Source of the DNA: an uncultured virus (IMG/VR IMGVR_UViG_3300025889_000079) | Lineage: Duplodnaviria > Heunggongvirae > Uroviricota > Caudoviricetes | Length of the DNA: 53,944 nucleotides | IMG/VR virus record: IMGVR_UViG_3300025889_000079 | Direction: 5' to 3' (one strand) | Shown here: piece after piece, positions 3,680-48,040 of the stretch | How positions within the stretch are numbered: position 1 is the stretch's first letter | Layout of the letters: each line of letters begins with the position of its first letter | Notes under the pieces: model-generated | Databases searched by the model: none | Seen by the model: only the letters and a program-made list of their open reading frames with translations | Told to the model about the DNA's origin: nothing | Position numbers and translations under genes: made by a program

Positions 3680-4138
3680 ATGAAAACACTAATCAAATTA
3701 AGTGTTTTCTTTGGACTTATACTATTTTCCACATCATTACAATCAAGTGAACTGACACAGGAGTTTAAGAACCCTTCCTTTAGTGGTAATGGGTACTCAA
3801 ACCACGTGTTGTCAATACAGCAACTTGAACACCAGAGAAAGCAAAAGATAAAAGAGGACGCAGAAGCGAAGGCTCGTCAAGCAGAACGAGATGAAGAAAA
3901 CAAAACTATTAATAGATTCATCGCTAACGTAGAGAGTAGAATTTACGCTAACTTATCAAAGCAGTTAGTTGACAATATGTTTGGTGATACTGGACAAACA
4001 TCTGGTACTGCTACGATTGAAGGTGCTACTATTGTATGGAATAAAGATGTTGATTTAGGAACTATTGCGATTACAATAACAGCCGAAGATGGAAGTATAA
4101 CAACTTTAACAGTACCAATAGGAGATTTTGGTTTCTAA
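3680..4138 (+). CDS. csgF: Curli assembly component CsgF
   Basis: Signal peptide then SELTQEFKNPSFSGNG (CsgF N-terminal NPxFxG motif); adjacent to csgG. Confidence 0.85.
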   Translation: MKTLIKLSVFFGLILFSTSLQSSELTQEFKNPSFSGNGYSNHVLSIQQLEHQRKQKIKEDAEAKARQAERDEENKTINRFIANVESRIYANLSKQLVDNMFGDTGQTSGTATIEGATIVWNKDVDLGTIAITITAEDGSITTLTVPIGDFGF

Positions 4139-4938
4139 TGTTAAAATTTTTAGTGGTGGCGTTAATAGCTGTTTTTTTAAACAGTTGTGCTACTGTACCA
4201 GACATACAAGACCCTAAACTATCTATCTCTCCTTTACAACAAAAGTTTAAAGAGATGAAACCTTTAGATGGTCCTAAAATAACGATTGCTGTCTATTCAT
4301 TTTCTGATAAGACAGGTCAAAGAAAACCAAGTGAAAAATTTTCTCAATTAAGTTCGGCAGTTACACAAGGTGCTGAAGTATGGGTGATACAGGCATTAAA
4401 AGAAGTAGGACAAGGTAGTTGGTTTAAAGTAGTAGAACGTATAGGTTTAGACAATCTTATTAAAGAAAGACAACTAATAAGAAGTACCAGAGATCAATAC
4501 GAAGGTGAAAAAGAAAAGAAATTAAAACCTTTATTATTTGCTGGACTAATAGTTGAGGGTGCTGTTGTAGGTTATGACTCAAACATTATGACAGGAGGTG
4601 CTGGTGCTAGATATTTGGGTATAGGATTACAAACTCAATATAGAGTAGATAATGTAACGGTTTCAATGCGAGTAATAAGTGTATCCACAGGTGAAGTTTT
4701 ATTATCTGTGGCAGTAGAAAAACAAATTTTATCAGTTGCTCAAGGCGGTACTGTGTTTAAGTTTTTAGATATGGGTACAAAAGCAGTAGAGATTGAATCG
4801 GGAACGACTGTAAATGAACCTGTTAATTATGCTGTAAGAGCAGCTATAGAACAGGCAGTAGTAGAAGTTATATTAAAAGGGGAAAAACAAACCCTATGGA
4901 AGTTTAAACAAGAAGGAGAAAAAGTAAATGTTAAATAA
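4138..4938 (+). CDS. csgG: Curli secretion channel lipoprotein CsgG
   Basis: Lipobox LNSC; AVYSFSDKTGQRKP, SSAVTQGA, WFKVVERIGLDNLIKERQLIR, GGAGARYLGIG motifs. Confidence 0.93.
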   Translation: MLKFLVVALIAVFLNSCATVPDIQDPKLSISPLQQKFKEMKPLDGPKITIAVYSFSDKTGQRKPSEKFSQLSSAVTQGAEVWVIQALKEVGQGSWFKVVERIGLDNLIKERQLIRSTRDQYEGEKEKKLKPLLFAGLIVEGAVVGYDSNIMTGGAGARYLGIGLQTQYRVDNVTVSMRVISVSTGEVLLSVAVEKQILSVAQGGTVFKFLDMGTKAVEIESGTTVNEPVNYAVRAAIEQAVVEVILKGEKQTLWKFKQEGEKVNVK

Positions 4939-5641
4939 ACTCTTAATTACATTATTGGCGAGTTTATTATGTTTTAACGTTTATGCTAATGACATCTATA
5001 TCGATCAGGTTGGTGATAGTTTAGATTTGGACATCACACAAGATGGACAAAACAACAAAATTGGTACATCACTAGCGGACGCAGATTTTGATGGAGATAA
5101 TATGACGTTTAATATTACTCAAAGAGGTAATACAAACGAAATCACAGCAACAATACAAGGTAACACTTATACTGGTACTTGGGTATTTACAGGTAATACA
5201 AACACAGTTGACTTACTTTGTGATAGCTCAGGTAACGGTAATTGTGAAACTGTAACTTTAAATATCACAAACACAGGTGATAGTAACGCTTACACAATTA
5301 ATATTGGTGAAACAGCAGACGCAGAAAATGCTACAATTGCTTTCACAGTAACAGGTGATAATAACATTATTAATACAGATGTAAATGGTACAAATTCAGA
5401 TATTACTGTGGTGATGAATAACTCCGCTTCATTAGCAACATCAAGTGCTAATGCTGATGAGGGTAATCAACTAGACTTAACTCAAACTGGAAACGGTGAT
5501 AGTGCTGGTCATAGTATTACTTTAAACATCACAGGCGGTGGTAGTACATACACAGTAACACAATCTGGTATCTATGATAATAAAGTAAATGCTACGTTTA
5601 GTGGCGATAGTCAAAGTGTGAATATTACACAAAGTGATTAA
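4928..5641 (+). CDS. Secreted curlin-like repeat protein (CsgA/CsgB-like)
   Basis: Signal peptide; repeated I-x-Q-x-G-x-x-N beta-solenoid units; N/T/G/Q/D rich. Confidence 0.7.
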   Translation: MLNKLLITLLASLLCFNVYANDIYIDQVGDSLDLDITQDGQNNKIGTSLADADFDGDNMTFNITQRGNTNEITATIQGNTYTGTWVFTGNTNTVDLLCDSSGNGNCETVTLNITNTGDSNAYTINIGETADAENATIAFTVTGDNNIINTDVNGTNSDITVVMNNSASLATSSANADEGNQLDLTQTGNGDSAGHSITLNITGGGSTYTVTQSGIYDNKVNATFSGDSQSVNITQSD

Positions 5642-6735
5642 TGAAATATTTTTTTATATTATTGTTTTTGATTTGTTCAGTTGCTGAAGCTAACATTGGT
5701 AAAGTAAGTGAACATAAAGGTACAGGCCTTATCAAAAGAACAACTGGCGATAAGGTCGAAACCAATTTAGAAACAAATGTGTTTTCAATGGACGAAGTTT
5801 CTACTGGACAAGGTAGAACAGGTATTACGTTTGTTGATAATACTAAAGTTGAATTGACTGAACACTCAAAATTAGTTATTGATGAATTTGTTTATGACCC
5901 TAAAACAAACACAGGTGCTTTAAGTTTAAAAGCAAGTTTAGGAAGTGTACGTTATGCGAGTGGTCAGATAGCAAAGAATAGTAAGCAGAATGTAAAAATA
6001 TCTACACCCACTGCTACGATTGCTGTTAGAGGAACAGACTTTGCTATGGTAGTAGATGAATTGGGTGGTTCTACTATTATTTTATTACCAAGTTGCGATA
6101 CAAAAGGTTTTTGTTATGTAGGACAAATAGAAGTTATTTCGGATGCTGGTAAAGTTATAATGGATCAAGCGTTTCAGGCAACAAGAGTTGAAACACCTGA
6201 AAGTAAACCATTCAAACCTATTAGTTTAGATATTAATGAGAATATGATTTCAAATCTTCTTATTTTATCTCCACCTAAAGAATTGAATAACGTTGAGTCA
6301 AAAGAAGAACGAAAAGCAGTTGCTAATGTTTTAGATATTGACTTTTTACAAATTGATATTTTAAATGAAGATTTATTAGCAGTTAAAGATGATGAAAACT
6401 TTGAAGAATTAGATGTTGATTATTTGGCACAAGATTTTTTAGCTGATGTATTAGACGCAATTAATAAAGTGTTGGCAGAAAGTTTTTTAAGTCAATTAAA
6501 TGATGTATTTGTTAAGAAAGCACAAAAGACTGGACAAGATACAACAACAGGTATTATTATAATTGACCAAGGTACCTTTTGGGAGTTTAGACGAGAAGAT
6601 ACAAACAACTATGTTAGATTGAGATTAAGTAAATCAAGTGAGTACATTATTAATTTAACTCAAGGCGACTTTGTAACAAGAGATTACATTTTAGGAGATG
6701 GTGGTGTTAATAATATAGACATCTATCAAAAATAA
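5641..6735 (+). CDS. FecR-domain periplasmic protein
   Basis: Signal peptide; D-x-V-x-TG, ITFVDNTKVEL, ISTPTATIAVRGTDF motifs of FecR domains. Confidence 0.85.
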   Translation: MKYFFILLFLICSVAEANIGKVSEHKGTGLIKRTTGDKVETNLETNVFSMDEVSTGQGRTGITFVDNTKVELTEHSKLVIDEFVYDPKTNTGALSLKASLGSVRYASGQIAKNSKQNVKISTPTATIAVRGTDFAMVVDELGGSTIILLPSCDTKGFCYVGQIEVISDAGKVIMDQAFQATRVETPESKPFKPISLDINENMISNLLILSPPKELNNVESKEERKAVANVLDIDFLQIDILNEDLLAVKDDENFEELDVDYLAQDFLADVLDAINKVLAESFLSQLNDVFVKKAQKTGQDTTTGIIIIDQGTFWEFRREDTNNYVRLRLSKSSEYIINLTQGDFVTRDYILGDGGVNNIDIYQK

Positions 6736-6736
6736 T

Positions 6737-8194
6737 ATGTTTGGAAGAATTTTAACAAAGATAGTTATATTTACTTTTTGTTGGCTTGTTTTATGGTCAA
6801 TATTTTCAAAAGTAAGAGCAGATTCAGTTCTAATATTACACGCCAGTTATGGTAATACTGAAACTAATATAGGCTCAAGGCTATTAGCAGAAGGTCATTC
6901 AGTAACTTATTCCACAGGTGGTGTGCCTTCTAGTGTAAGTAGTTATCAACAAATATTTGATTTAAGATACAACAACGCATACTCAGCTTCAGAAATAACC
7001 GTATTGAACAACTTTGTAAAGAATGGTGGCTTTCTGATGATGAACGGTGAGAACTCTGGCTTTGCCACTAGAAACAATTCTATTGCTTCTGTTATTTCTA
7101 CTTTAGGTGGAGGCACTTTAACTTTTGGAAGTGGTAATAACTCTTATACAGTAATTAATTCTAAATTCACAAATGATACAGGTACAATTACAGGTGCGGC
7201 TGGTAGTAGTTTAATCAACTCAAAAGGTCAATATGTTTTCAAAGATACATCAGGTAATATAGGTGGTATGATATGGCAAGCAGCAGATTTAGGTTCAGGC
7301 TATTCAGGTGCTGTGTTTGTTACAGCAGATATTAATATGTGGGATTCTACTTATGGTTCTACATTATTAAAAGTAAATATATTAGATGATATTATAGATA
7401 TGGAAACAGCAGGCACTTTATATGGTTCTGTTACACCTCAATACTCATCAGCACCCACAAATGAACAATTACAATTTAGAACAGATATGAGAAATATTAA
7501 TCCAAGTGGTAATTCAATTTATATTGATAGTATTGGCGATCATACTACGGTAACTATAAATCAATATGGTAATGGAAACTTAATAGCAGGAACATCTACA
7601 ACAAGTACCACTAATTCAGACGCAACAATAACAGGAGATTATAATACCGTAAACATTCAACAAGGATATAATGGTAATAATAATAGTGGTGATAATGTTT
7701 TATTATTTGATATTACAGGCAATCATAATAATTTAACAGTTGAACAAGGAAATAATATTTTAGATACAGGCGGACATAGAGCAGAAACAACAATCAATGG
7801 TAACTATAACGATTTGAATTTATATCAATATAATACAGGTTATGGTTCAGGACAAACAGCACAGATTGGTATAACAGGTAATGATAATTCAATTATATCT
7901 TATCAAAGAGATACAGATAAAATGTTGTTTGTAAATATCACAGGTTCAAATAGTACCGTAACTACAAATCAAAAAGATAGTGGTAATCATTTTTTAGATA
8001 TTACTTTAGGTAGTAATCAAACAGTAACAACAACACAAGAAGGTAGTGGTTCACACGCAGCTACTATTGATATGGGCGGTTATTCTGCTGGTTTATCTTT
8101 AAGTCAAAGTGGTTCAACCAGTCAAACTTATTCATTAAATCAAACGTGTATTAATCCAGCAGGTTGTGGAACAACAACGGTAAATCAACAATGA
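6737..8194 (+). CDS. Secreted two-domain protein: globular alpha/beta domain + C-terminal curlin-like repeats
   Basis: Signal peptide; LNNFVKNGGFLMMNGE; C-terminal Q-x-G-x-x-N/H repeats ending CINPAGC. Confidence 0.7.
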   Translation: MFGRILTKIVIFTFCWLVLWSIFSKVRADSVLILHASYGNTETNIGSRLLAEGHSVTYSTGGVPSSVSSYQQIFDLRYNNAYSASEITVLNNFVKNGGFLMMNGENSGFATRNNSIASVISTLGGGTLTFGSGNNSYTVINSKFTNDTGTITGAAGSSLINSKGQYVFKDTSGNIGGMIWQAADLGSGYSGAVFVTADINMWDSTYGSTLLKVNILDDIIDMETAGTLYGSVTPQYSSAPTNEQLQFRTDMRNINPSGNSIYIDSIGDHTTVTINQYGNGNLIAGTSTTSTTNSDATITGDYNTVNIQQGYNGNNNSGDNVLLFDITGNHNNLTVEQGNNILDTGGHRAETTINGNYNDLNLYQYNTGYGSGQTAQIGITGNDNSIISYQRDTDKMLFVNITGSNSTVTTNQKDSGNHFLDITLGSNQTVTTTQEGSGSHAATIDMGGYSAGLSLSQSGSTSQTYSLNQTCINPAGCGTTTVNQQ

Positions 8195-10029
8195 TAAAAA
8201 AGATACTTACACATTGGACAATTGCTTTTGTAACTTTATTTGTTTTAACATTTATAGGTTTACAAGACTCACAAGTTAAAGAGATATTAAGATTAAAGTC
8301 ATTTGACTTATTATTACAATCAGAAACAAAACAAGTATCAACTGATATAGGTGTTATTACCATAGACGAAAAGGCAATAGAGAAGTACGGACAATGGCCT
8401 TGGAAAAGAGATGTACTTGCTGACTTTATTTTAAAATTAAGAGAGGCTGAAGTAGGTATTATAGTTATGCCTATACTATTTGCCGAAGAAGATAGATTGG
8501 GTGGTGATGATATTTTAGCAGAAGCAGTACGAAGTAATGGAGTAGTCATAGGACAAACAGGTACAAATCAAACAAATAAGAACGCAGTACCAAGAGGTGT
8601 TGCAAAAATAGGTGATCCCTTACCTTTCTTATTTGAATGGACTGGTATGTTAGGACCTATACCCAAATTAGGTCAAAACGCAGATGGTGTAGGAGTAACG
8701 AATACAGCGCCTGAAATAGATGGTGTCATTAGAAGAATACCTCTTATTATGAAGATAGGTAAAGAAACCTATCCAGCGATGGCTATAGAAGTTATACGTG
8801 TGGCTACTAACGCACCTAGTTATCAAATTAAAGCAGGACCGAGTGGTATTATTGCTATGAGAGTTCCTGGATTTAGTAACATAGAAACAGATCCCAATGC
8901 TCGTATATGGTTACGATGGAATAAAGAATATGAAACTATCAGTATTGCTAATATACAAGATTTCAAAAGATTTAAAGGACGAACAGTTATTATCGCACCA
9001 ACAGCTGAAGGACTAAACAGTATTATTGCTACACCTACAGGTGAAAAATATAGTTATGAATTAACTGCCTCTACATTACAAACAGTTTTAGATGGCAAAC
9101 AAATTAATAGATACGATTATAGTTTATTTTTAGAATTACTTATTTCAGTTATTGTAGGTTTGTCTATTGTAATAATTACAAGATTTACTCCGTATTGGTT
9201 TGTAGGTTTAAAGTTAATTGGAATGTATGTTGTTGTCATTTATACTTCTTATTATCTATTTCACAAATATGCTATATTAGCAGACGCAAGTTGGATTATT
9301 ATTACATTAACAATAGTAGGATTTCATTCTGTCTTTAATAGATTTATCTTAGAGTTTCAACTTAAACAACAAATCAAAAAACAATTTGAACATTACTTAG
9401 AACCTAAGATGGTGAAGAAGTTACAACAAAATCCTGATCTATTAAAACTAGGTGGTGAAACAAAAGAATTAACATTTTTATTTTCTGATATAAGAGGATT
9501 TACTCCATTGTCAGAAAAGTATCAAAGTAATCCAGCAGATTTAACAAAAGTAATAAACAGATTCCTAACACCTATGACCGATATTATAATGAAGAATGGT
9601 GGAACAATAGACAAGTATATGGGTGATTGTATTATGGCTTTTTGGAATGCACCTATTGACACACCTAATCATAAAGAATTAGCAATCAAAAGTGCCTTAG
9701 AAATGATGGTTAAATTAAAAGAGTTAAATGATAATGACGGTTTTGGAGATAATAATAAAATAAATATAGGTATAGGTATCAATACAGGAAAATGTATTGT
9801 AGGTAATATGGGTAGTGAACAACGATTTGACTATTCAGTTATCGGAGATCCTGTTAATCTAGCAAGTAGATTGGAAGGAGTTTCTAAAAATTATGACGCT
9901 ACATTAGTGATCGGTGAGGACACTTATCGTGGCATATCTGATTTATTTAATTTCAAAAAACTAGATGATGTACAAGTAAAAGGTAAATCTAATAAAGTTG
10001 CCATTTACACAATAGAAAAGGAAAAATAA
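8191..10029 (+). CDS. CHASE2-domain class III adenylate cyclase
   Basis: IDEKAIEKYGQWPWKR and DGVIRR (CHASE2), 3 TMs, FSDIRGFT, DKYMGDCIM, DYSVIGDPVNLASRLE; ATG at 8191 overlaps upstream stop. Confidence 0.93.
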   Translation: MIKKILTHWTIAFVTLFVLTFIGLQDSQVKEILRLKSFDLLLQSETKQVSTDIGVITIDEKAIEKYGQWPWKRDVLADFILKLREAEVGIIVMPILFAEEDRLGGDDILAEAVRSNGVVIGQTGTNQTNKNAVPRGVAKIGDPLPFLFEWTGMLGPIPKLGQNADGVGVTNTAPEIDGVIRRIPLIMKIGKETYPAMAIEVIRVATNAPSYQIKAGPSGIIAMRVPGFSNIETDPNARIWLRWNKEYETISIANIQDFKRFKGRTVIIAPTAEGLNSIIATPTGEKYSYELTASTLQTVLDGKQINRYDYSLFLELLISVIVGLSIVIITRFTPYWFVGLKLIGMYVVVIYTSYYLFHKYAILADASWIIITLTIVGFHSVFNRFILEFQLKQQIKKQFEHYLEPKMVKKLQQNPDLLKLGGETKELTFLFSDIRGFTPLSEKYQSNPADLTKVINRFLTPMTDIIMKNGGTIDKYMGDCIMAFWNAPIDTPNHKELAIKSALEMMVKLKELNDNDGFGDNNKINIGIGINTGKCIVGNMGSEQRFDYSVIGDPVNLASRLEGVSKNYDATLVIGEDTYRGISDLFNFKKLDDVQVKGKSNKVAIYTIEKEK

Positions 10030-14488: not shown

Positions 14489-14887
14489 ATGGAAAATAGT
14501 ATCCTAATACATAAACATTTAATTATTAGGGCCGAAATTAATAATCCGCCAATGAGTGTAGAGTTATTAACAGAATGGTTTAAAGGTTTAATTGATTCCA
14601 TAGGAATGAAATTGATGATGGGACCTTATGTTGCTTATTGTGATATGCCAGGTAATAGAGGTATCACAGGTATTGCTGTGATAGAAACAAGTCATATTGC
14701 TATGCACGTTTGGGATGAACCTAATCCTGCATTAATGCAATTGGATGTGTACAGTTGTGCTGAATTTGATCCATATAAGATTGCAGAAAAGATTAAAAAT
14801 GATTTCTTTGCTGTCAAATGTGATTACAAATTTTTAAATAGAGAAACAGGTTTAAAACCTATACGATTAAATAAAGGAAAATTATAA
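14489..14887 (+). CDS. speD: S-adenosylmethionine decarboxylase proenzyme-like protein
   Basis: HLII...GITGIAVIETSHIAMHVWDE...LDVYSC pyruvoyl-enzyme motif. Confidence 0.8.
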   Translation: MENSILIHKHLIIRAEINNPPMSVELLTEWFKGLIDSIGMKLMMGPYVAYCDMPGNRGITGIAVIETSHIAMHVWDEPNPALMQLDVYSCAEFDPYKIAEKIKNDFFAVKCDYKFLNRETGLKPIRLNKGKL

Positions 14888-40928: not shown

Positions 40929-41433
40929 CGAACTGATTAAATCACAAACTGCCGAAAGGGAGGGGATTAATAATAATCCTAGTGAGGCACAGATCGGAAA
41001 GCTACAAAGATTATGCGAAAACATATTACAACCAGTCCGTGACCATTATGGAATGCCAGTAGGAGTTTCAAGTGGATTTAGAAGTGCTGAACTATGTTTA
41101 AAAGTAGGTTCAAGTGTTAATTCACAGCACACTAAAGGAGAAGCGGCTGATTTTGAAATTGCAGGTGTGTCCAATCAGGACTTGGCACATTGGATTGATA
41201 AAAATTTAGACTATGACCAAATGATATTAGAGTTTTGGAATCCAGACGAACCAAATAGTGGCTGGGTACACTGCTCTTATAAGAATCCAGAAGAAAACAG
41301 AAAAGAGTTTTTAAGAGCATACCGAGATGATAATAAAAAAGTATGTTACGAAAAATACTCATATATCAAATATGCTGGGCAAGAACCATCTTCGGACGAA
41401 GTAAATCAAATGTACGCTGACAAGGGCGTTTAA
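40900..41433 (+). CDS. Peptidase M15A (candidate endolysin)
   Basis: LSKSFTLNEL, SSGFRS, SQHTKGEAAD, WVHCS. Confidence 0.88.
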   Translation: MKLSKSFTLNELIKSQTAEREGINNNPSEAQIGKLQRLCENILQPVRDHYGMPVGVSSGFRSAELCLKVGSSVNSQHTKGEAADFEIAGVSNQDLAHWIDKNLDYDQMILEFWNPDEPNSGWVHCSYKNPEENRKEFLRAYRDDNKKVCYEKYSYIKYAGQEPSSDEVNQMYADKGV

Positions 41434-41436
41434 TGC

Positions 41437-41465
41437 TTGACAATCACACAAAATAGTGATATAAT
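41437..41465 (+). promoter_or_regulatory. Sigma70-type early promoter
   Basis: TTGACA-N17-TATAAT with extended -10 TG. Confidence 0.85.
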
Positions 41466-41493
41466 AATAGAATATTAAAGAGGAAGGTATATT

Positions 41494-42210
41494 ATGGCAT
41501 TTAATCACGTGAAAATTGACGAAAGCGTCTTACCTAAAAATTTAGGTGCAAAGGGTAAAAACCAAGACGGAATAAGAATTTATACAATAGATGGTATTAA
41601 TATGCCTTCCGTTACTTCAATTCTAGGTAACATTCCAGAACGATCAGAAAAGATACAGGCTTGGAAACGAAGTGTTGGCGAAAAGATGGCCAACTATATT
41701 TCTGCCTCATCAACCAGTAGAGGTAAAACATTACACACATTGGTTGAAAATCATTTAAAGAATGAAGATGATAGAAATGTTGGAATAACTGCTGTTACTC
41801 CATTAGGACTGTTCAGAATTATTAAACCATATCTAGCAAGAGTAGATAATATTCATATGTTAGAAACCATTATGTATTCAAAAGAAATGCAAGTTGCAGG
41901 ACAAGTAGATTGTGTTGCTGAATATAGAGGTAAATTATCTGTCATAGACTTCAAGTCCTCTACTAAACAAAGAGATGAAGATTATAATTATGGTAACTTT
42001 TGTCAAACAGCAGCATATGCTAAAATGTTTGAAGAATTATATCCAGGTAAAAAAATAGAACAAACAGTTGTACTTGCGGCCTGTGAAGATGGCTTTGTAC
42101 AAGAGTGGGTAAACGGAAGAGAAAAGGTAGATCAATACCTAGAAAAGTTTATTAATCACGCAACAGATTTTTTTACTAGACATTCCGAAGCATTGACCAA
42201 CATCAAATAA
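41494..42210 (+). CDS. PD-(D/E)XK exonuclease
   Basis: PSVTSIL, RG...H, AGQVDC, IDFKSS, Q.AAY. Confidence 0.85.
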   Translation: MAFNHVKIDESVLPKNLGAKGKNQDGIRIYTIDGINMPSVTSILGNIPERSEKIQAWKRSVGEKMANYISASSTSRGKTLHTLVENHLKNEDDRNVGITAVTPLGLFRIIKPYLARVDNIHMLETIMYSKEMQVAGQVDCVAEYRGKLSVIDFKSSTKQRDEDYNYGNFCQTAAYAKMFEELYPGKKIEQTVVLAACEDGFVQEWVNGREKVDQYLEKFINHATDFFTRHSEALTNIK

Positions 42211-42257
42211 TAAATAGTAGAAACAATAAAGTAATAAAGGAAGCAAAACATTAATTT

Positions 42258-42310
42258 GTTAAGAAGGTGATTTAAATTTATCCTACTTGCGACCATAACG
42301 GCTAAAGGGA
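42258..42310 (+). promoter_or_regulatory. SAM-II (SAM-alpha)-like riboswitch
   Basis: GGTGATTT ... CTTGC.ACC ... GCTAAAG with SD GGGA 4 nt before ATG 42315. Confidence 0.7.
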
Positions 42311-42314
42311 ACAA

Positions 42315-42644
42315 ATGAAGAAGTTAATAGTAATTTTAACTTTATTATGGGCAAACGTATCATACGCTGAACAATACAATTTATATTGGAATCAAGTACC
42401 AGCAGTATGTGGCACGCCAGATGAAATAAAAAAATATATTGATGATAAAGGTTTTGAACCTGTACATATCAGTTTAGGTAGAGTTGGGAGTACACCAGAT
42501 GGTGAACCAATTTATATGATAACTTATTATGAAACAAAAGATCAAGTATTGGTAACTGTGGACATACCTAGTGCTACAGATAGTTGTATTTTATTTCACA
42601 CTTATAATAAAAGCAAAGTATTAGAGAAGAAAAAAGGAATTTAA
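42315..42644 (+). CDS. Secreted hypothetical protein
   Basis: Signal peptide ending SYA; one Cys pair. Confidence 0.75.
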   Translation: MKKLIVILTLLWANVSYAEQYNLYWNQVPAVCGTPDEIKKYIDDKGFEPVHISLGRVGSTPDGEPIYMITYYETKDQVLVTVDIPSATDSCILFHTYNKSKVLEKKKGI

Positions 42645-42870
42645 CGTTGAAGGTAAGATAATACCTAGACAGGACCAGGGTGCAATTCCCTGCCACTCCA
42701 CCATTAAAACAATGAAATTTTAGGGGTGGAATCAGGATCGACTGCTAGTTAAAACTTACTGGAGTTAAATGGCTGATGTCCTAACATCAAACAATAAATG
42801 CTAACGAAAGTTATGCTTTAGCAGCCTAGTCTGCTGGGGTTTGCCTGTGACCTTGCAACAGAACACAGGC
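42645..42870 (+). ncRNA. ssrA: Circularly permuted two-piece tmRNA
   Basis: T-arm CAGGG-TGCAATT-CCCTG and CCACTCC-A-CCA (to 42703) precede GGGGTGG (42723) with G3:U wobble; GGATCGAC; tag ANESYALAA* at 42800-42829. Confidence 0.93.
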
Positions 42871-42872
42871 GC

Positions 42873-42901
42873 TTTACAAAATCAATAAAGTATGTTATAA
42901 T
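42873..42901 (+). promoter_or_regulatory. Sigma70-type early promoter
   Basis: TTTACA-N17-TATAAT with extended -10 TG. Confidence 0.8.
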
Positions 42902-42906
42902 ATATT

Positions 42907-43131
42907 ATGATGTTAATGAATAGTAAAAAGTTTGGTTTAACGATTGAGGAGATAGTTAAAACAAAGAAAATATCCTATATGGATGCCATAGTATATTTTT
43001 GCGATAGAAACGAAGTTGATCCTGCAACCATAGGTCCTATGGTCAACAAATCATTAAAAGAAAAGATACAAATTGAAGCCGAGAATTTAAGACTTATTAA
43101 GAAGTCTAGCTCTGGCGTCTTACCTATATGA
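42907..43131 (+). CDS. gp33: Late-transcription coactivator gp33
   Basis: IEEIVK...SYMDAIVYFC...LKEKIQIEAENL; synteny with gp59/gp32. Confidence 0.85.
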   Translation: MMLMNSKKFGLTIEEIVKTKKISYMDAIVYFCDRNEVDPATIGPMVNKSLKEKIQIEAENLRLIKKSSSGVLPI

Positions 43132-43736
43132 ATAATAACAGTTATGAAGCATATAAATTATATCTTGCCATTAAATTACACTTCACAACTGATAACTATG
43201 ATTTTTTCAAACACAATGCAAAAGTTAATTCATCCATAAATACTTTTATAAAGAGAAATGATAGATACTTTTTTTATAGACTTGCAACCAAATATAATAA
43301 AGAAGAACTTATTGATTATTTTGTATGCAACTTTTTTGAAAATTCAAAAACTTGGATTGGGAGTTTAATACGTGCAGATGGAGAATCGACTTATACAAAT
43401 TGGAAGAAATATAAAGACGCATTTACTTATAATTTTAGAAATGAGTGCTTATTGGTTCGCTCTCTCATTGATGACAATAGGATTTCTTTTGATGATATGT
43501 TTCTCGTATCTGACGGCCAACACCCAAGAGCTTTACGCTTACATCTCTCAAAAAAACTATCCGTACAAACAATCATCATCTTGGATAAGATATTATCGTT
43601 TATTAAAAATTGGGATAAAGAGATTGCCGAGAAAGTTATATGGCCTGAAAAGTCATTTAAGATTACCAAGTTAAGTCCATTTGTTAATTATAATTTAACT
43701 AAATGTAAATTTATTATGAAAGAGATATTTGTATAA
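43128..43736 (+). CDS. gp59: Helicase loader gp59
   Basis: YKLYLAIKLHFTTDNYDFFK...KRNDRYFF. Confidence 0.9.
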   Translation: MNNNSYEAYKLYLAIKLHFTTDNYDFFKHNAKVNSSINTFIKRNDRYFFYRLATKYNKEELIDYFVCNFFENSKTWIGSLIRADGESTYTNWKKYKDAFTYNFRNECLLVRSLIDDNRISFDDMFLVSDGQHPRALRLHLSKKLSVQTIIILDKILSFIKNWDKEIAEKVIWPEKSFKITKLSPFVNYNLTKCKFIMKEIFV

Positions 43737-46371: not shown

Positions 46372-47583
46372 ATGTCAAATCAATTTATAGTACCATCGGG
46401 TACAAAATTTAAAGATATTCATTTAGAATTAAATGAAAAATTAAAAGAAATATTTCCAGAAAGATATGGTGACGGCACTTTAGTGCAAGGTGCAAAATAT
46501 ATAGAAACAATCAATGCTGATTGGGATATGTTTAAAATGGATAATTATTATACAGATGATAAAGGTCTTAAAGAAGATGTTACTAATTCTGTTCAAAAAG
46601 TAAGAGCAGCTAAAAATAAAAAAATAGCTGAAGTAAAAGAAGATATTAAAAAAAATGGTTATGATTTAAGAGAACCTAGACCTGCTTTTTATAGGGATAA
46701 ACAAGGTAGACTAATGCCTGCAGACGGTAGAGGTAAATGGGGTTCAATGAAAGAACTAGGTTATAAAAATATACAAGTTGATATATTTGAAGTTGCTAAT
46801 CAATCTGTAGCAAGACATTTAGGTAATAGACTTAATTGGAAAACTAAACCAAAAGCTGACATAGAAGCTGATGATATTGAAAAACAGTTAGTTGATGATA
46901 TAAATGAAAATCTTTTGACTTTATCAGGTAAAGAACACAAAGACTTTGCTCTATTAGTAGATGAGGCACAGGCAAGTGGTGGTGATAGTTTTAAAGAATC
47001 AACTTATAATAAAATTGCAAGACGAGTTTTATCAAAAGTAAACAAAGGCGCTTATGAAACTAGAATAAGTTATGATGACAAATCAGCAAAATTATGGATG
47101 GAAAAATATAAGTATGTTGATGATTATAGGCCAGATGGTCATAAACAAGGTAATGGTATTTTTTATTATGTGTGTTCTGCTAATACTTTATCAAAGTCAT
47201 ATAAAGACGCTGTTTACAGAGCAGACTTTTTAGCTTCTACCATTCCTCATTTTAAACAGTTAAGAGTTGTTTTACATCCTGGTGAAATATCTTCTTCAGA
47301 TGTAGCTGAAAGTTTTAGATTGATTATTGATAATGGTAGAACTGAATGGGAAAATTATACTAAAAAATTAAAAGCTAGAGTTACAGGAGAAGATTTAGAA
47401 ATTGTTAATAAAAAACAATTAGTCTTATATGGTTGTCTACCAGCTTCAGGTGCTATGCAAGAGGACTATCCTTTAGATAAAATGATATTGTTTGATAAAG
47501 GACCATTAGCGAATGGTAAAACATTTACTGATTTATATAATGAGGAAACATTATCAAAACAATTTATAAGTGATGAAGATTAA
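46372..47583 (+). CDS. Hypothetical protein with ParB-N-like segment
   Basis: IKKNGYDL...P......DGRG motif; SD AGGAG. Confidence 0.65.
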   Translation: MSNQFIVPSGTKFKDIHLELNEKLKEIFPERYGDGTLVQGAKYIETINADWDMFKMDNYYTDDKGLKEDVTNSVQKVRAAKNKKIAEVKEDIKKNGYDLREPRPAFYRDKQGRLMPADGRGKWGSMKELGYKNIQVDIFEVANQSVARHLGNRLNWKTKPKADIEADDIEKQLVDDINENLLTLSGKEHKDFALLVDEAQASGGDSFKESTYNKIARRVLSKVNKGAYETRISYDDKSAKLWMEKYKYVDDYRPDGHKQGNGIFYYVCSANTLSKSYKDAVYRADFLASTIPHFKQLRVVLHPGEISSSDVAESFRLIIDNGRTEWENYTKKLKARVTGEDLEIVNKKQLVLYGCLPASGAMQEDYPLDKMILFDKGPLANGKTFTDLYNEETLSKQFISDED

Positions 47584-48040
47584 AAGAATACCTAATATTG
47601 ATAGAAGAGCGTACAAGGGCTTGTTTAAGCCCTTGAACCCTCAAAAGTATAAAGGTAACGTAAACAACATAATCTATCGTTCCTCTTGGGAAAAACGTTT
47701 TATGAATTATTGTGATAGAACAAAAGAAGTTATTGAATGGGGTAGTGAAGAATTATCAATTTATTATAGAGGTGTAGATGATAGACCACACAGATATTTT
47801 CCTGATTTCTATATGAAAGTTATACAGCCTAATAAAACTTATAAAAAGTTTTTAGTAGAAATAAAACCAAAATATCAGACAAAAAAACCACAACCTGGAA
47901 AAATAAAATCAGCATATTACAAAAGGGCATTATTAACTTACGAAACAAATAGACGTAAGTGGGCAACAGCATTTGCTTGGTGTAAAAAACATAATATGTC
48001 ATTTAAAATACTTACCGAAGATCATCTAAAGACCTTTTAA
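47573..48040 (+). CDS. gp4: Head completion nuclease gp4
   Basis: PLNPQKYKG, YRSSWE, WGSEE, HRYFPDF, VEIKP, ILTE. Confidence 0.9.
   Translation: MKIKRIPNIDRRAYKGLFKPLNPQKYKGNVNNIIYRSSWEKRFMNYCDRTKEVIEWGSEELSIYYRGVDDRPHRYFPDFYMKVIQPNKTYKKFLVEIKPKYQTKKPQPGKIKSAYYKRALLTYETNRRKWATAFAWCKKHNMSFKILTEDHLKTF

Follow-up and report, generated by a model that had tools for sequence, protein, structure and literature searches.

A conserved leader element resembling SAM-II riboswitches ahead of a predicted secreted-protein gene in T4-like marine phages

A conserved 45-nt leader element

We analysed a 53,944-nucleotide (nt) stretch of uncultured viral DNA (IMG/VR record IMGVR_UViG_3300025889_000079; hereafter the window), which is part of a T4-like myophage related to the pelagimyophages, with the Pelagibacter phages Mosig and HTVC008M as its closest named relatives. 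A leader element of 45 nt (42266..42310; this and all other features described are on the plus strand) lies between an exonuclease gene and an open reading frame (ORF) encoding a 109-amino-acid (aa) protein. By analogy with characterised S-adenosylmethionine (SAM) riboswitches, we consider it probable, with appreciable doubt, that the element is a miniaturised aptamer of the SAM-II/SAM-V class acting as a SAM-responsive translational OFF switch of the 109-aa secreted protein; phages of this type would then probably tie the production of a small secreted protein to the SAM level of the host. The original prediction, made from the letters of the window, had placed a SAM-II-like riboswitch at this site, an interpretation that is partly supported by the analysis, and had further proposed that the phage may thereby sense the sulfur status of its host.

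An exact-pattern scan of IMG/VR for the core of the element returned many contigs, and the core was present in 78 of the loci retrieved, comprising 40 distinct 120-nt versions, all of which precede a homologue of the MKK... signal-peptide protein. Retrieval blind to the motif, using a profile of the protein and the best 80 of 262 relatives, gave 76 viral loci with usable leaders, and the element was found in 58 of these (30 of 38 distinct leaders). When the 40 distinct copies were aligned, 26 of 58 columns were invariant and 13 nearly invariant. Over 32 copies (496 pairs), nucleotide identity averaged 0.864 in the element with its variable loops included, compared with 0.728 across the opening 300 nt of the ORF and 0.750 across the upstream 60 nt. 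The end of the exonuclease ORF lies 12-75 nt upstream of the CTACTTGCG core (most often at -48/-49), and the block therefore falls outside coding sequence at almost every locus; on the same ground we rejected the possibility that GGTGATTTAA encodes the C-terminus and stop codon of that ORF.

The element occurs once per genome, always ahead of the same gene. A covariance model built from the phage copies (R1) found one copy in the window at 70.5 bits, with the next best match at 13.8 bits, and one copy in a complete 165-kb relative at 78.5 bits, the other matches there having expectation values (E) of ~0.7-1. Three exact-pattern scans for variants at each of the three positions of ACC, one of the invariant blocks, gave no match in 2.9 million viral contigs. 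The phage-type element had no match in cellular genomes across 185,579 species; one pattern match in a Pelagibacteraceae genome (L211) falls inside the end of a citrate-synthase-like ORF and was set aside as chance.

Taken by itself, the window sequence is only suggestive as evidence above chance. A minimal signature, GATTT..TTGC..GCTAAA, has a single occurrence there where 0.07 would be expected, and 6 of 100 shuffles produced it one or more times; the element stands above chance because it is conserved across loci. A recurring cassette or promoter motif was also considered and rejected, as CTACTTGCGAC with up to two mismatches gave 7 matches in the window against 4.8 expected, and the idea that CUUGCGACC might pair with helix 27 of 16S rRNA was dropped.

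Two pairs of divergent leaders (L004/L050 and L039/L040) retain CUACUUGCGAC..UAAC..GCUAA(A)GG without GGUGAUUUA, because the exonuclease ORF extends into that region. In L004 a 9-bp helix, AUUAUUUCU/GGGAAUAAU, can form over the Shine-Dalgarno (SD) sequence and the AUG, and, to judge from their sequences, the divergent leaders may have arisen from the switch by decay or remodelling. Separately, one metagenome contig of 305,333 bases carries the same copy of the element twice (L450 and L459), 165,363 bases apart; this spacing is close to one genome of the 165.7-kb relative G002, and the contig is therefore probably either a concatemer or an assembly of a circularly permuted genome.

Proposed fold and likeness to SAM-II

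All the strings named in the original prediction were found where it had placed them: GGTGATTT at 42266-42273, TCCT at 42281-42284, CTTGC at 42286-42290, ACC at 42292-42294, GCTAAAG at 42301-42307, GGGA at 42307-42310 and, upstream, AATAAATA at 42209-42216. The SAM-II order assigned to them is also correct, agreeing with the consensus of the Rfam SAM_alpha family (GGuGAUUUG...GGCUUGCAgCC...UUAAA...GCUAAAgAGG), to which the copy at one related locus (L117) aligns in register.

From its 5' end, the element starts with GGU (42266..42268), the putative 5' strand of helix P1 as aligned to P1 of SAM_alpha, in which GG is invariant and U is replaced by C in some copies. Loop L1 follows as GAUUUA (42269..42274), containing the Rfam consensus GAUUU and comparable to the GAUUUAA of host SAM-II copies; by analogy with U8-U10 of SAM-V (PMC6061858), U42271-42273 would supply the third strand of a triplex. 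Beyond a variable loop segment (42275..42280; 3-8 nt among copies) lie UCCU (42281..42284), the predicted 5' strand of P2a with its CC core, which pairs with 42307-42310 in 95.9% of alignment cells, and the invariant CUUGC (42286..42290), which matches the SAM-II consensus and would form the 5' strand of P2b (98.3% of cells paired). The invariant ACC (42292..42294) would return as the 3' strand of P1, and L3, AUAACG (42295..42300), is 6 nt long in 44 of 48 distinct copies. GCUAAAG (42301..42307), invariant and identical to the Rfam consensus, would provide the 3' strand of P2b with U42303 bulged and A42304-42306 following it. The final GGGA (42307..42310) is the SD core and at the same time the candidate 3' strand of P2a; the TCCT/GGGA pairing that had been pointed out corresponds to helix P2a of translational SAM-II and SAM-V.

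These strands are predicted to assemble into an H-type pseudoknot. P1 would pair GGU (42266-68) with ACC (42292-94), and P2b would pair CUUGC with GC-U-AAAG through U42287:A42305, U42288:A42304, G42289:C42302 and C42290:G42301, leaving U42303 bulged; P2a, (U)CC(U)/(G)GG(A), would include the SD, and the third strand of the triplex, U42271-73, would occupy the P2b major groove. Without ligand the SD helix would be marginally stable and ribosomes would initiate; with SAM bound, the triplex and P2a would lock together, the SD would be hidden and translation would be turned off. This scheme follows the model for SAM-V and for the metX riboswitch, in which a ligand-stabilised triplex allows P2a to form, hiding the SD and giving an OFF response (PMC6061858). 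The original prediction had described SAM-II as a translational OFF pseudoknot, which holds for a minority of its members such as that of metX, most SAM-II riboswitches being transcriptional (PMC6061858).

The proposed pairs hold in 96.4% of alignment cells, as against 33-66% when the partners are slid. The energy of P2a and P2b, calculated without triplex or ligand, is -2.9 kcal/mol in the window and ranges from -0.9 to -4.0 kcal/mol over 42 copies (mean -2.4 kcal/mol). The short P1, which had been remarked on before and has three possible pairs, accompanies a short L3 (6 nt versus 9-13 nt in host copies), a combination that is coherent for an H-type pseudoknot.

SAM-II and SAM-V bind SAM almost identically (PMC6061858), and we infer by analogy where the contacts of SAM-V would fall in the phage element. 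U20:A48 and U19:A49 would correspond to U42288:A42304 and U42287:A42305; the bulged U47, which partners the adenine of SAM, to U42303; A48-A50 to A42304-42306, with A50, which holds the amino-acid end of SAM, at A42306; and the 2-bp P2a containing the SD to C42282-83 with G42308-09. All positions expected to contact SAM are invariant with the exception of U42271, which is G in 4 of 40 phage copies (GAGUU in place of GAUUU), and the same variant occurs in 3 of 17 host SAM-II copies.

Agreement with SAM-II extends over the whole element. Phage copies and consensus have GG-GAUUU, CC, CUUGC, CC, UUAA, GCUAAAG and GG in common, with order and register preserved. Mapping through the L117 alignment shows the Rfam consensus base in 22 of the 26 columns that are invariant in phages, among them GAUUU, CUUGC, CC and GCUAAAG and the columns expected by analogy to contact SAM. 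The conserved SAM-II core (GAUUU, CUUGC, and GCUAAAG with its bulged U) is present, invariant or nearly so, in the 40 distinct copies. In L117 the SAM_alpha model (RF00521; gathering score 36 bits) aligns over its full length (1-79) exactly on the element with 17.9 bits, the score being lost through three missing outer P1 pairs and deletions in L3. The corresponding E is 0.89 when 4227 families are searched against 3.7 kb, or by our arithmetic ~2e-4 if SAM_alpha is taken as a single pre-specified family; against 121 nt it is 0.029.

A number of results weigh against assigning the element to SAM-II. The window showed no SAM family at the gathering score in the Rfam search, and its copy had no match to SAM_alpha, SAM-V (RF01826) or SAM-II long-loop (RF01726) at E<=10 in searches of 251 nt and 81 nt; three related phage records gave no RF00521 match at that level either. 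SAM_alpha reached E<=10 in one of seven copies tested, that of L117, which lies below the cut-off, and neither RF01826 nor RF01726 matched the phage copies at E<=10. Reciprocal searches with R1 against true cellular SAM-II at pattern-selected loci aligned in register at 10-14.6 bits (E ~1-8), which is not significant, and of 17 host sites selected with Rfam R1 recovered one, ranked first among its matches (13.8 bits, E 0.5). Covariation is almost absent, and the fold therefore rests on analogy: only two double changes were seen, of which the C-G to U-A change in P2a (L051) is credible and the other comes from a poorly aligned copy, such changes being few because the columns hardly vary. P1, with three possible pairs against ~6 in SAM-II, has no covariation, and U to C at 42268 is never compensated, either in 12 locus occurrences or in the four of four true copies among 25 metagenome matches to GGCG; a second protein-centred retrieval brought no new P1 variants. 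The nested minimum free energy of the whole leader was no better than that of shuffles (z = +0.73); nested methods cannot see a pseudoknot. Nothing visible connects the downstream gene with methionine or SAM, and with a sub-threshold RF00521 score, a non-canonical P1 and a gene context outside methionine and SAM metabolism the phage element falls outside that family on each of these counts.

How much the low scores count can be gauged from true SAM-II copies. Controls of the Rhizobiales and Parvibaculum types scored 73.8-78.8 bits, and copies from other phyla with an intact 6-bp P1 scored 28.6-37.8 bits, under their cut-offs; RF01726 gave 37.8 bits to one cellular copy (L217). In the probable host family, SAM_alpha matched at E<=0.01 in 32 of 41 Pelagibacteraceae genomes (G004-G044) with 21.2-34.8 bits and exceeded 36 bits in none of the 41. 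The Rfam cut-off excludes all of these matches, and standard annotation would therefore miss SAR11 SAM-II riboswitches. Seventeen host copies precede MetX-, BHMT-, MetF-, MetW-, MetY- and MetE-like ORFs, gene names being taken from the N-termini, and read roughly AGCGCU-GAUUUAA-CUGAA-UUGCG-AGCGCU-(9-13 nt, A-rich)-GCUAAA; UGAUUUAA, UUGCGA and GCUAAA are common to phage and host copies, in that order. A copy without three P1 pairs and half of L3 is expected to score somewhat under the host range, as was observed. The failure of the SAM_alpha and SAM-V models, a check proposed with the original prediction, is weakened as a refutation because SAM-II of the host family also lies under the cut-off; the Rfam threshold discriminates poorly for AT-rich aptamers of the SAR11 type, and the failure of the window is nonetheless real.

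Alternative explanations and other leaders of the same gene

The element could instead be a translational operator independent of any ligand, either a weak SD-occluding pseudoknot or hairpin or the site of a phage or host protein such as a RegA-type repressor or an RNase, with the likeness to SAM-II being either a vestige of an ancestral host riboswitch or a product of convergence. We consider this unlikely. Much of what speaks for it has been given above: P1 without covariation and with an uncompensated C.A pair, sub-threshold covariance scores and a reciprocal search that is not significant; near-total invariance over 45 nt would also suit the footprint of a protein. It draws further on element-free homologues of the 109-aa gene, all of which have covarying SD-sequestering hairpins, such that occlusion of the ribosome-binding site may itself be the conserved requirement. 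The leaders of these homologues are unrelated to the element and hold the SD, and often the AUG, in stable hairpins of -9.5 to -12.4 kcal/mol whose stems covary (GGCCUC/GGGGCU, GCCUC/GAGGC, GGCCC/GGGCU and UGGCC/GGCCA); that of phage Mosig has UGGUCU...AGACCA. Restraint of the translation of the 109-aa gene is thus a conserved theme, and the element is the only version whose helix is too weak by itself.

Against such an operator, the helix of the element averages -2.4 kcal/mol against about -10 kcal/mol in the hairpins that replace it, as a ligand-dependent switch predicts, and a weak occluding helix matches the prediction of the SAM-V/metX type of switch. A plain occluding helix needs CC and GG only, leaving unexplained both the invariance of GAUUU, CUUGC, ACC and GCUAAA and the match of 22 of 26 invariant columns to the SAM-II consensus. 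The occurrence of the GAGUU variant in host aptamers as well argues for the same functional constraints in both.

Three of the alternative leader types have features of their own. Homologues at L148, L158, L159, L167, L171, L172, L380, L404 and L410 have the leader AAAAAGGUGGCCUC-(A/G)UUUUAUC...-GGGGGCU-AUG in common, in which an SD-sequestering hairpin of -9.5 to -11.2 kcal/mol has several covarying stems and a conserved UUUUAUC loop. A further type, that of L176 (9 loci), carries GAUAAGAU ... AUCUUAUC ... GGAUAAGAUG ~60 nt upstream of the ORF start; its middle segment can pair with either of two copies of one 8-mer, the first lying upstream and the second at the SD/AUG, and the leader looks, from its sequence, like a two-state translational switch. 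In L202, L391 and L396 the TATAAATA late box abuts a 7-10-bp SD-occluding hairpin, UUAGACC-GAAA-GGUUUAA, which would put the start of a late transcript within the hairpin's 5' arm. The T4 lysozyme gene e and soc have hairpins that occlude the ribosome-binding site and are relieved in late transcripts.

A riboswitch of SAM-II fold with a shifted ligand, for example decarboxylated SAM, S-adenosylhomocysteine or methylthioadenosine, is very unlikely in our view. P1, L1 and L3 are altered in architecture, the gene context is not that of methionine, and the SAM decarboxylase of the phage would yield decarboxylated SAM during infection; set against this, the positions for the adenine, sulfonium and amino-acid end of SAM are kept, as judged by analogy with SAM-V (PMC6061858), and the core has no sign of a changed pocket. 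Conservation at the level of DNA, as a promoter or protein site or through hitch-hiking in a recent horizontal spread, with a chance likeness to SAM-II, would fit the modestly unexpected signature in the window (6 of 100 shuffles) and the late-promoter-like box nearby, and is nevertheless highly improbable, since coding identity of 72.8% against 86.4% for the element, protein identity of 40-64% and invariant blocks indicate selection, not recent spread, and since the late box lies outside the block, no sigma-70-like promoter is called within it, and the block adjoins the start codon and includes the SD.

Genome setting and comparison with known systems

The SAM-II-class reading would set the element in a late transcript. 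A T4-type late-promoter-like box, AATAAATA (42209..42216), lies upstream of the element and from its sequence may function as a promoter; in 55 of 59 element-bearing loci an [AT]ATAAATA box ends 30-59 nt upstream of the element, against a background in the window of 0.024 per 110 nt. At that distance the whole aptamer would be included close to the 5' end of a late transcript. Transcription could also begin earlier, at a sigma-70-like promoter before the exonuclease gene (TTGACA-17-TATAAT, 41437..41465; 12 of 12 consensus matches with TG, putative from a consensus scan), a possible early start for a transcript running through leader, ORF and transfer-messenger RNA (tmRNA). The exonuclease gene itself (41494..42210), of the PD-(D/E)XK type (PF12705, E 2.7e-07; phrog_298, E 9.3e-54), is the upstream neighbour in related loci and in phage Mosig as well.

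The 109-aa ORF begins with an ATG at 42315 (42315..42644) and has, as predicted, a signal-peptide-like N-terminus, MKKLIVILTLLWANVSYA, judged by eye from the sequence. Homologues encoded at element-bearing loci are 40-64% identical to it, and two cysteines are invariant among homologues. Its structure model (predicted local distance difference test score, 81.4) consists of one helix packed on a four-stranded sheet. The family comprises 115 clusters from metagenomes and viromes, all unnamed hypothetical proteins without a Pfam assignment; the 109-aa protein had no family match in Pfam or PHROG and no match in a sequence search of the PDB at E<=1, and a search of the Atlas returned viral hypothetical clusters only. 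The fold search that had been proposed for it gave no informative match: Foldseek against the PDB found nothing at E<=0.001, its top match, AcrID1 (E 0.024, TM score 0.31), not being credible; BFVD returned uncharacterised phage proteins only; and the best VIA-align score (Z 5.7) is under the stated noise level of that method.

Downstream lies a permuted two-piece tmRNA gene of the alphaproteobacterial type (42598..42920), a call that the analysis bears out with two Rfam matches above gathering and a tag from ARAGORN. Rfam places tmRNA_permuted (RF04321, 92.4 bits) at 42641-42829 and alpha_tmRNA (RF01849, 87.9 bits) at 42598-42873, and ARAGORN places a tmRNA with the tag ANESYALAA at 42608-42920. 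The 5' part of the tmRNA (from 42598 for alpha_tmRNA and from 42608 for ARAGORN) overlaps the final ~15 codons of the ORF (42598-42644). In related loci, where tmRNAs were detected with a profile from three Rfam-confirmed copies, the permuted-tmRNA match begins within ~25 nt of the ORF stop in 38 of 53 loci with a detected tmRNA. Of the 58 loci with the element, 50 have a tmRNA downstream, against 3 of the 18 with other leaders; these counts are not phylogenetically independent. The order nuclease, homologue (43% identity), SsrA and gp33 recurs in phage Mosig, whose host is Candidatus Pelagibacter ubique HTCC1062.

No terminator-like site was found on the plus strand from 41400 to 43200, and the next strong promoter-like site after the leader lies past the tmRNA; leader, ORF and tmRNA are therefore likely, as had been proposed, to share a transcript. 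A sigma-70-like promoter before the gp33 gene (PF16805) at 42873..42901 (11 of 12 consensus matches, TG) likely marks the end of the transcription unit. A bolder proposal is that the element is the smallest natural SAM-II-class aptamer known (~45 nt, P1 of 2-3 pairs) and gates both the secreted late protein and, via translation-coupled polarity or mRNA decay, the output of tmRNA precursor; we think this quite unlikely, and if it were true, ribosome rescue in the infected cell would be tied to the methyl and sulfur status of the host.

Elsewhere the window encodes the gp33 late coactivator, the gp59 helicase loader, gp32, a baseplate protein, NrdA/B, an M15 endolysin and CsgF/CsgG. Its ORFs of at least 75 aa, 73 in number, are all on the plus strand. 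Between nrdA and nrdB, at 14489-14884, lies a gene for a protein of the SAM decarboxylase family (PF02675, E 1.6e-14), and two methyltransferase-family proteins are encoded besides; the phage therefore draws on the SAM pool itself. Apart from these, the window holds a FecR-domain protein (5641-6732) and a protein of 621 aa that joins a CHASE2 sensor to an adenylate/guanylate cyclase domain (8164-10026; E 5.7e-42 and 5.5e-25), a signalling gene unusual for a phage. Genes for a curli secretion pore of the CsgF and CsgG families lie at 3680-4935, and genes of this type have been described for pelagimyophages and for Melnitz (PMC9004378). A protein with a TnsA-like endonuclease N-terminal domain (PF08722, E 4e-18; 47570-48037), encoded between replication and tail genes, is possibly a homing or mobile endonuclease.

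Riboswitches are rare in phages. Rfam 15 holds no family matching the phage element, and no riboswitch of the SAM-II or SAM-V type in a phage was found in the literature searched, in which subscription journals were sparsely covered. For pelagimyophages, one study detected none with Riboswitch Scanner (PMC7029224), and another described glutamine riboswitches only (PMC9004378). If the element senses SAM, abundant ocean phages would read a central host metabolite directly, in a host, SAR11, that requires reduced sulfur and is itself reliant on SAM-II and SAM-V. If it works as an aptamer with a P1 of 2-3 pairs and an L3 of 6 nt, it would set a lower size limit for the fold and would show that current family models miss AT-rich marine members; a ligand-controlled leader would also offer a handle on the sizeable virus-only family to which the 109-aa protein belongs.

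Among known systems, the glutamine (glnA-type) riboswitch beside the two-piece tmRNA of Melnitz and Mosig sets a precedent for riboswitches in this phage group and occupies the same neighbourhood of tmRNA and gp33 (Buchholz et al. 2022, PMC9004378) but is of another RNA class and ligand and sits 3' of ssrA instead of ahead of the upstream ORF; the Rfam search called none in the window. The T4-style hairpins over ribosome-binding sites resemble the proposed structure of the element in burying the SD locally and in following a TATAAATA-type box, likewise in a T4-like phage. They differ from it in that the late box of the element ends 30-59 nt upstream and its helix is weak and flanked by invariant SAM-II-like blocks; a late box abutting the occluding helix, as in T4 lysozyme and soc, fits the L202-type leader only.

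SAM-V (RF01826), from Candidatus Pelagibacter, is an H-type pseudoknot with a triplex, a translational OFF mechanism and a 2-bp P2a containing the SD, and like the phage element it lies within about ten nt of the start codon in the same host lineage (PMC6061858, PMC2704228), a lineage that uses both SAM-II and SAM-V (PMC2704228). Unlike SAM-V, the phage element has no room for a P3 hairpin, with only 3-8 variable nt between the third strand and P2a, and the letter 5' of its UU pairs is C, as in SAM-II (CUUGC), where SAM-V by our reading has A18 (PMC6061858). Closest is SAM-II (RF00521), of which the rare translational metX type occurs in SAR11 and marine alphaproteobacteria: the order GGuGAUUU, CUUGC, CC, UUAA, GCUAAAG, GG is the same, the proposed P2b has a bulged U followed by AAA, the proposed short P2a contains the SD, and the host copies are likewise AT-rich and tolerate GAGUU. 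The phage element differs from it in a P1 of 3 possible instead of 5-6 pairs, an L3 of 6 instead of 9-13 nt and a longer L1, and in being phage-borne and preceding a secreted protein family instead of a methionine or SAM gene in 40 of 40 distinct regions; it probably works like SAM-II and descends from it.

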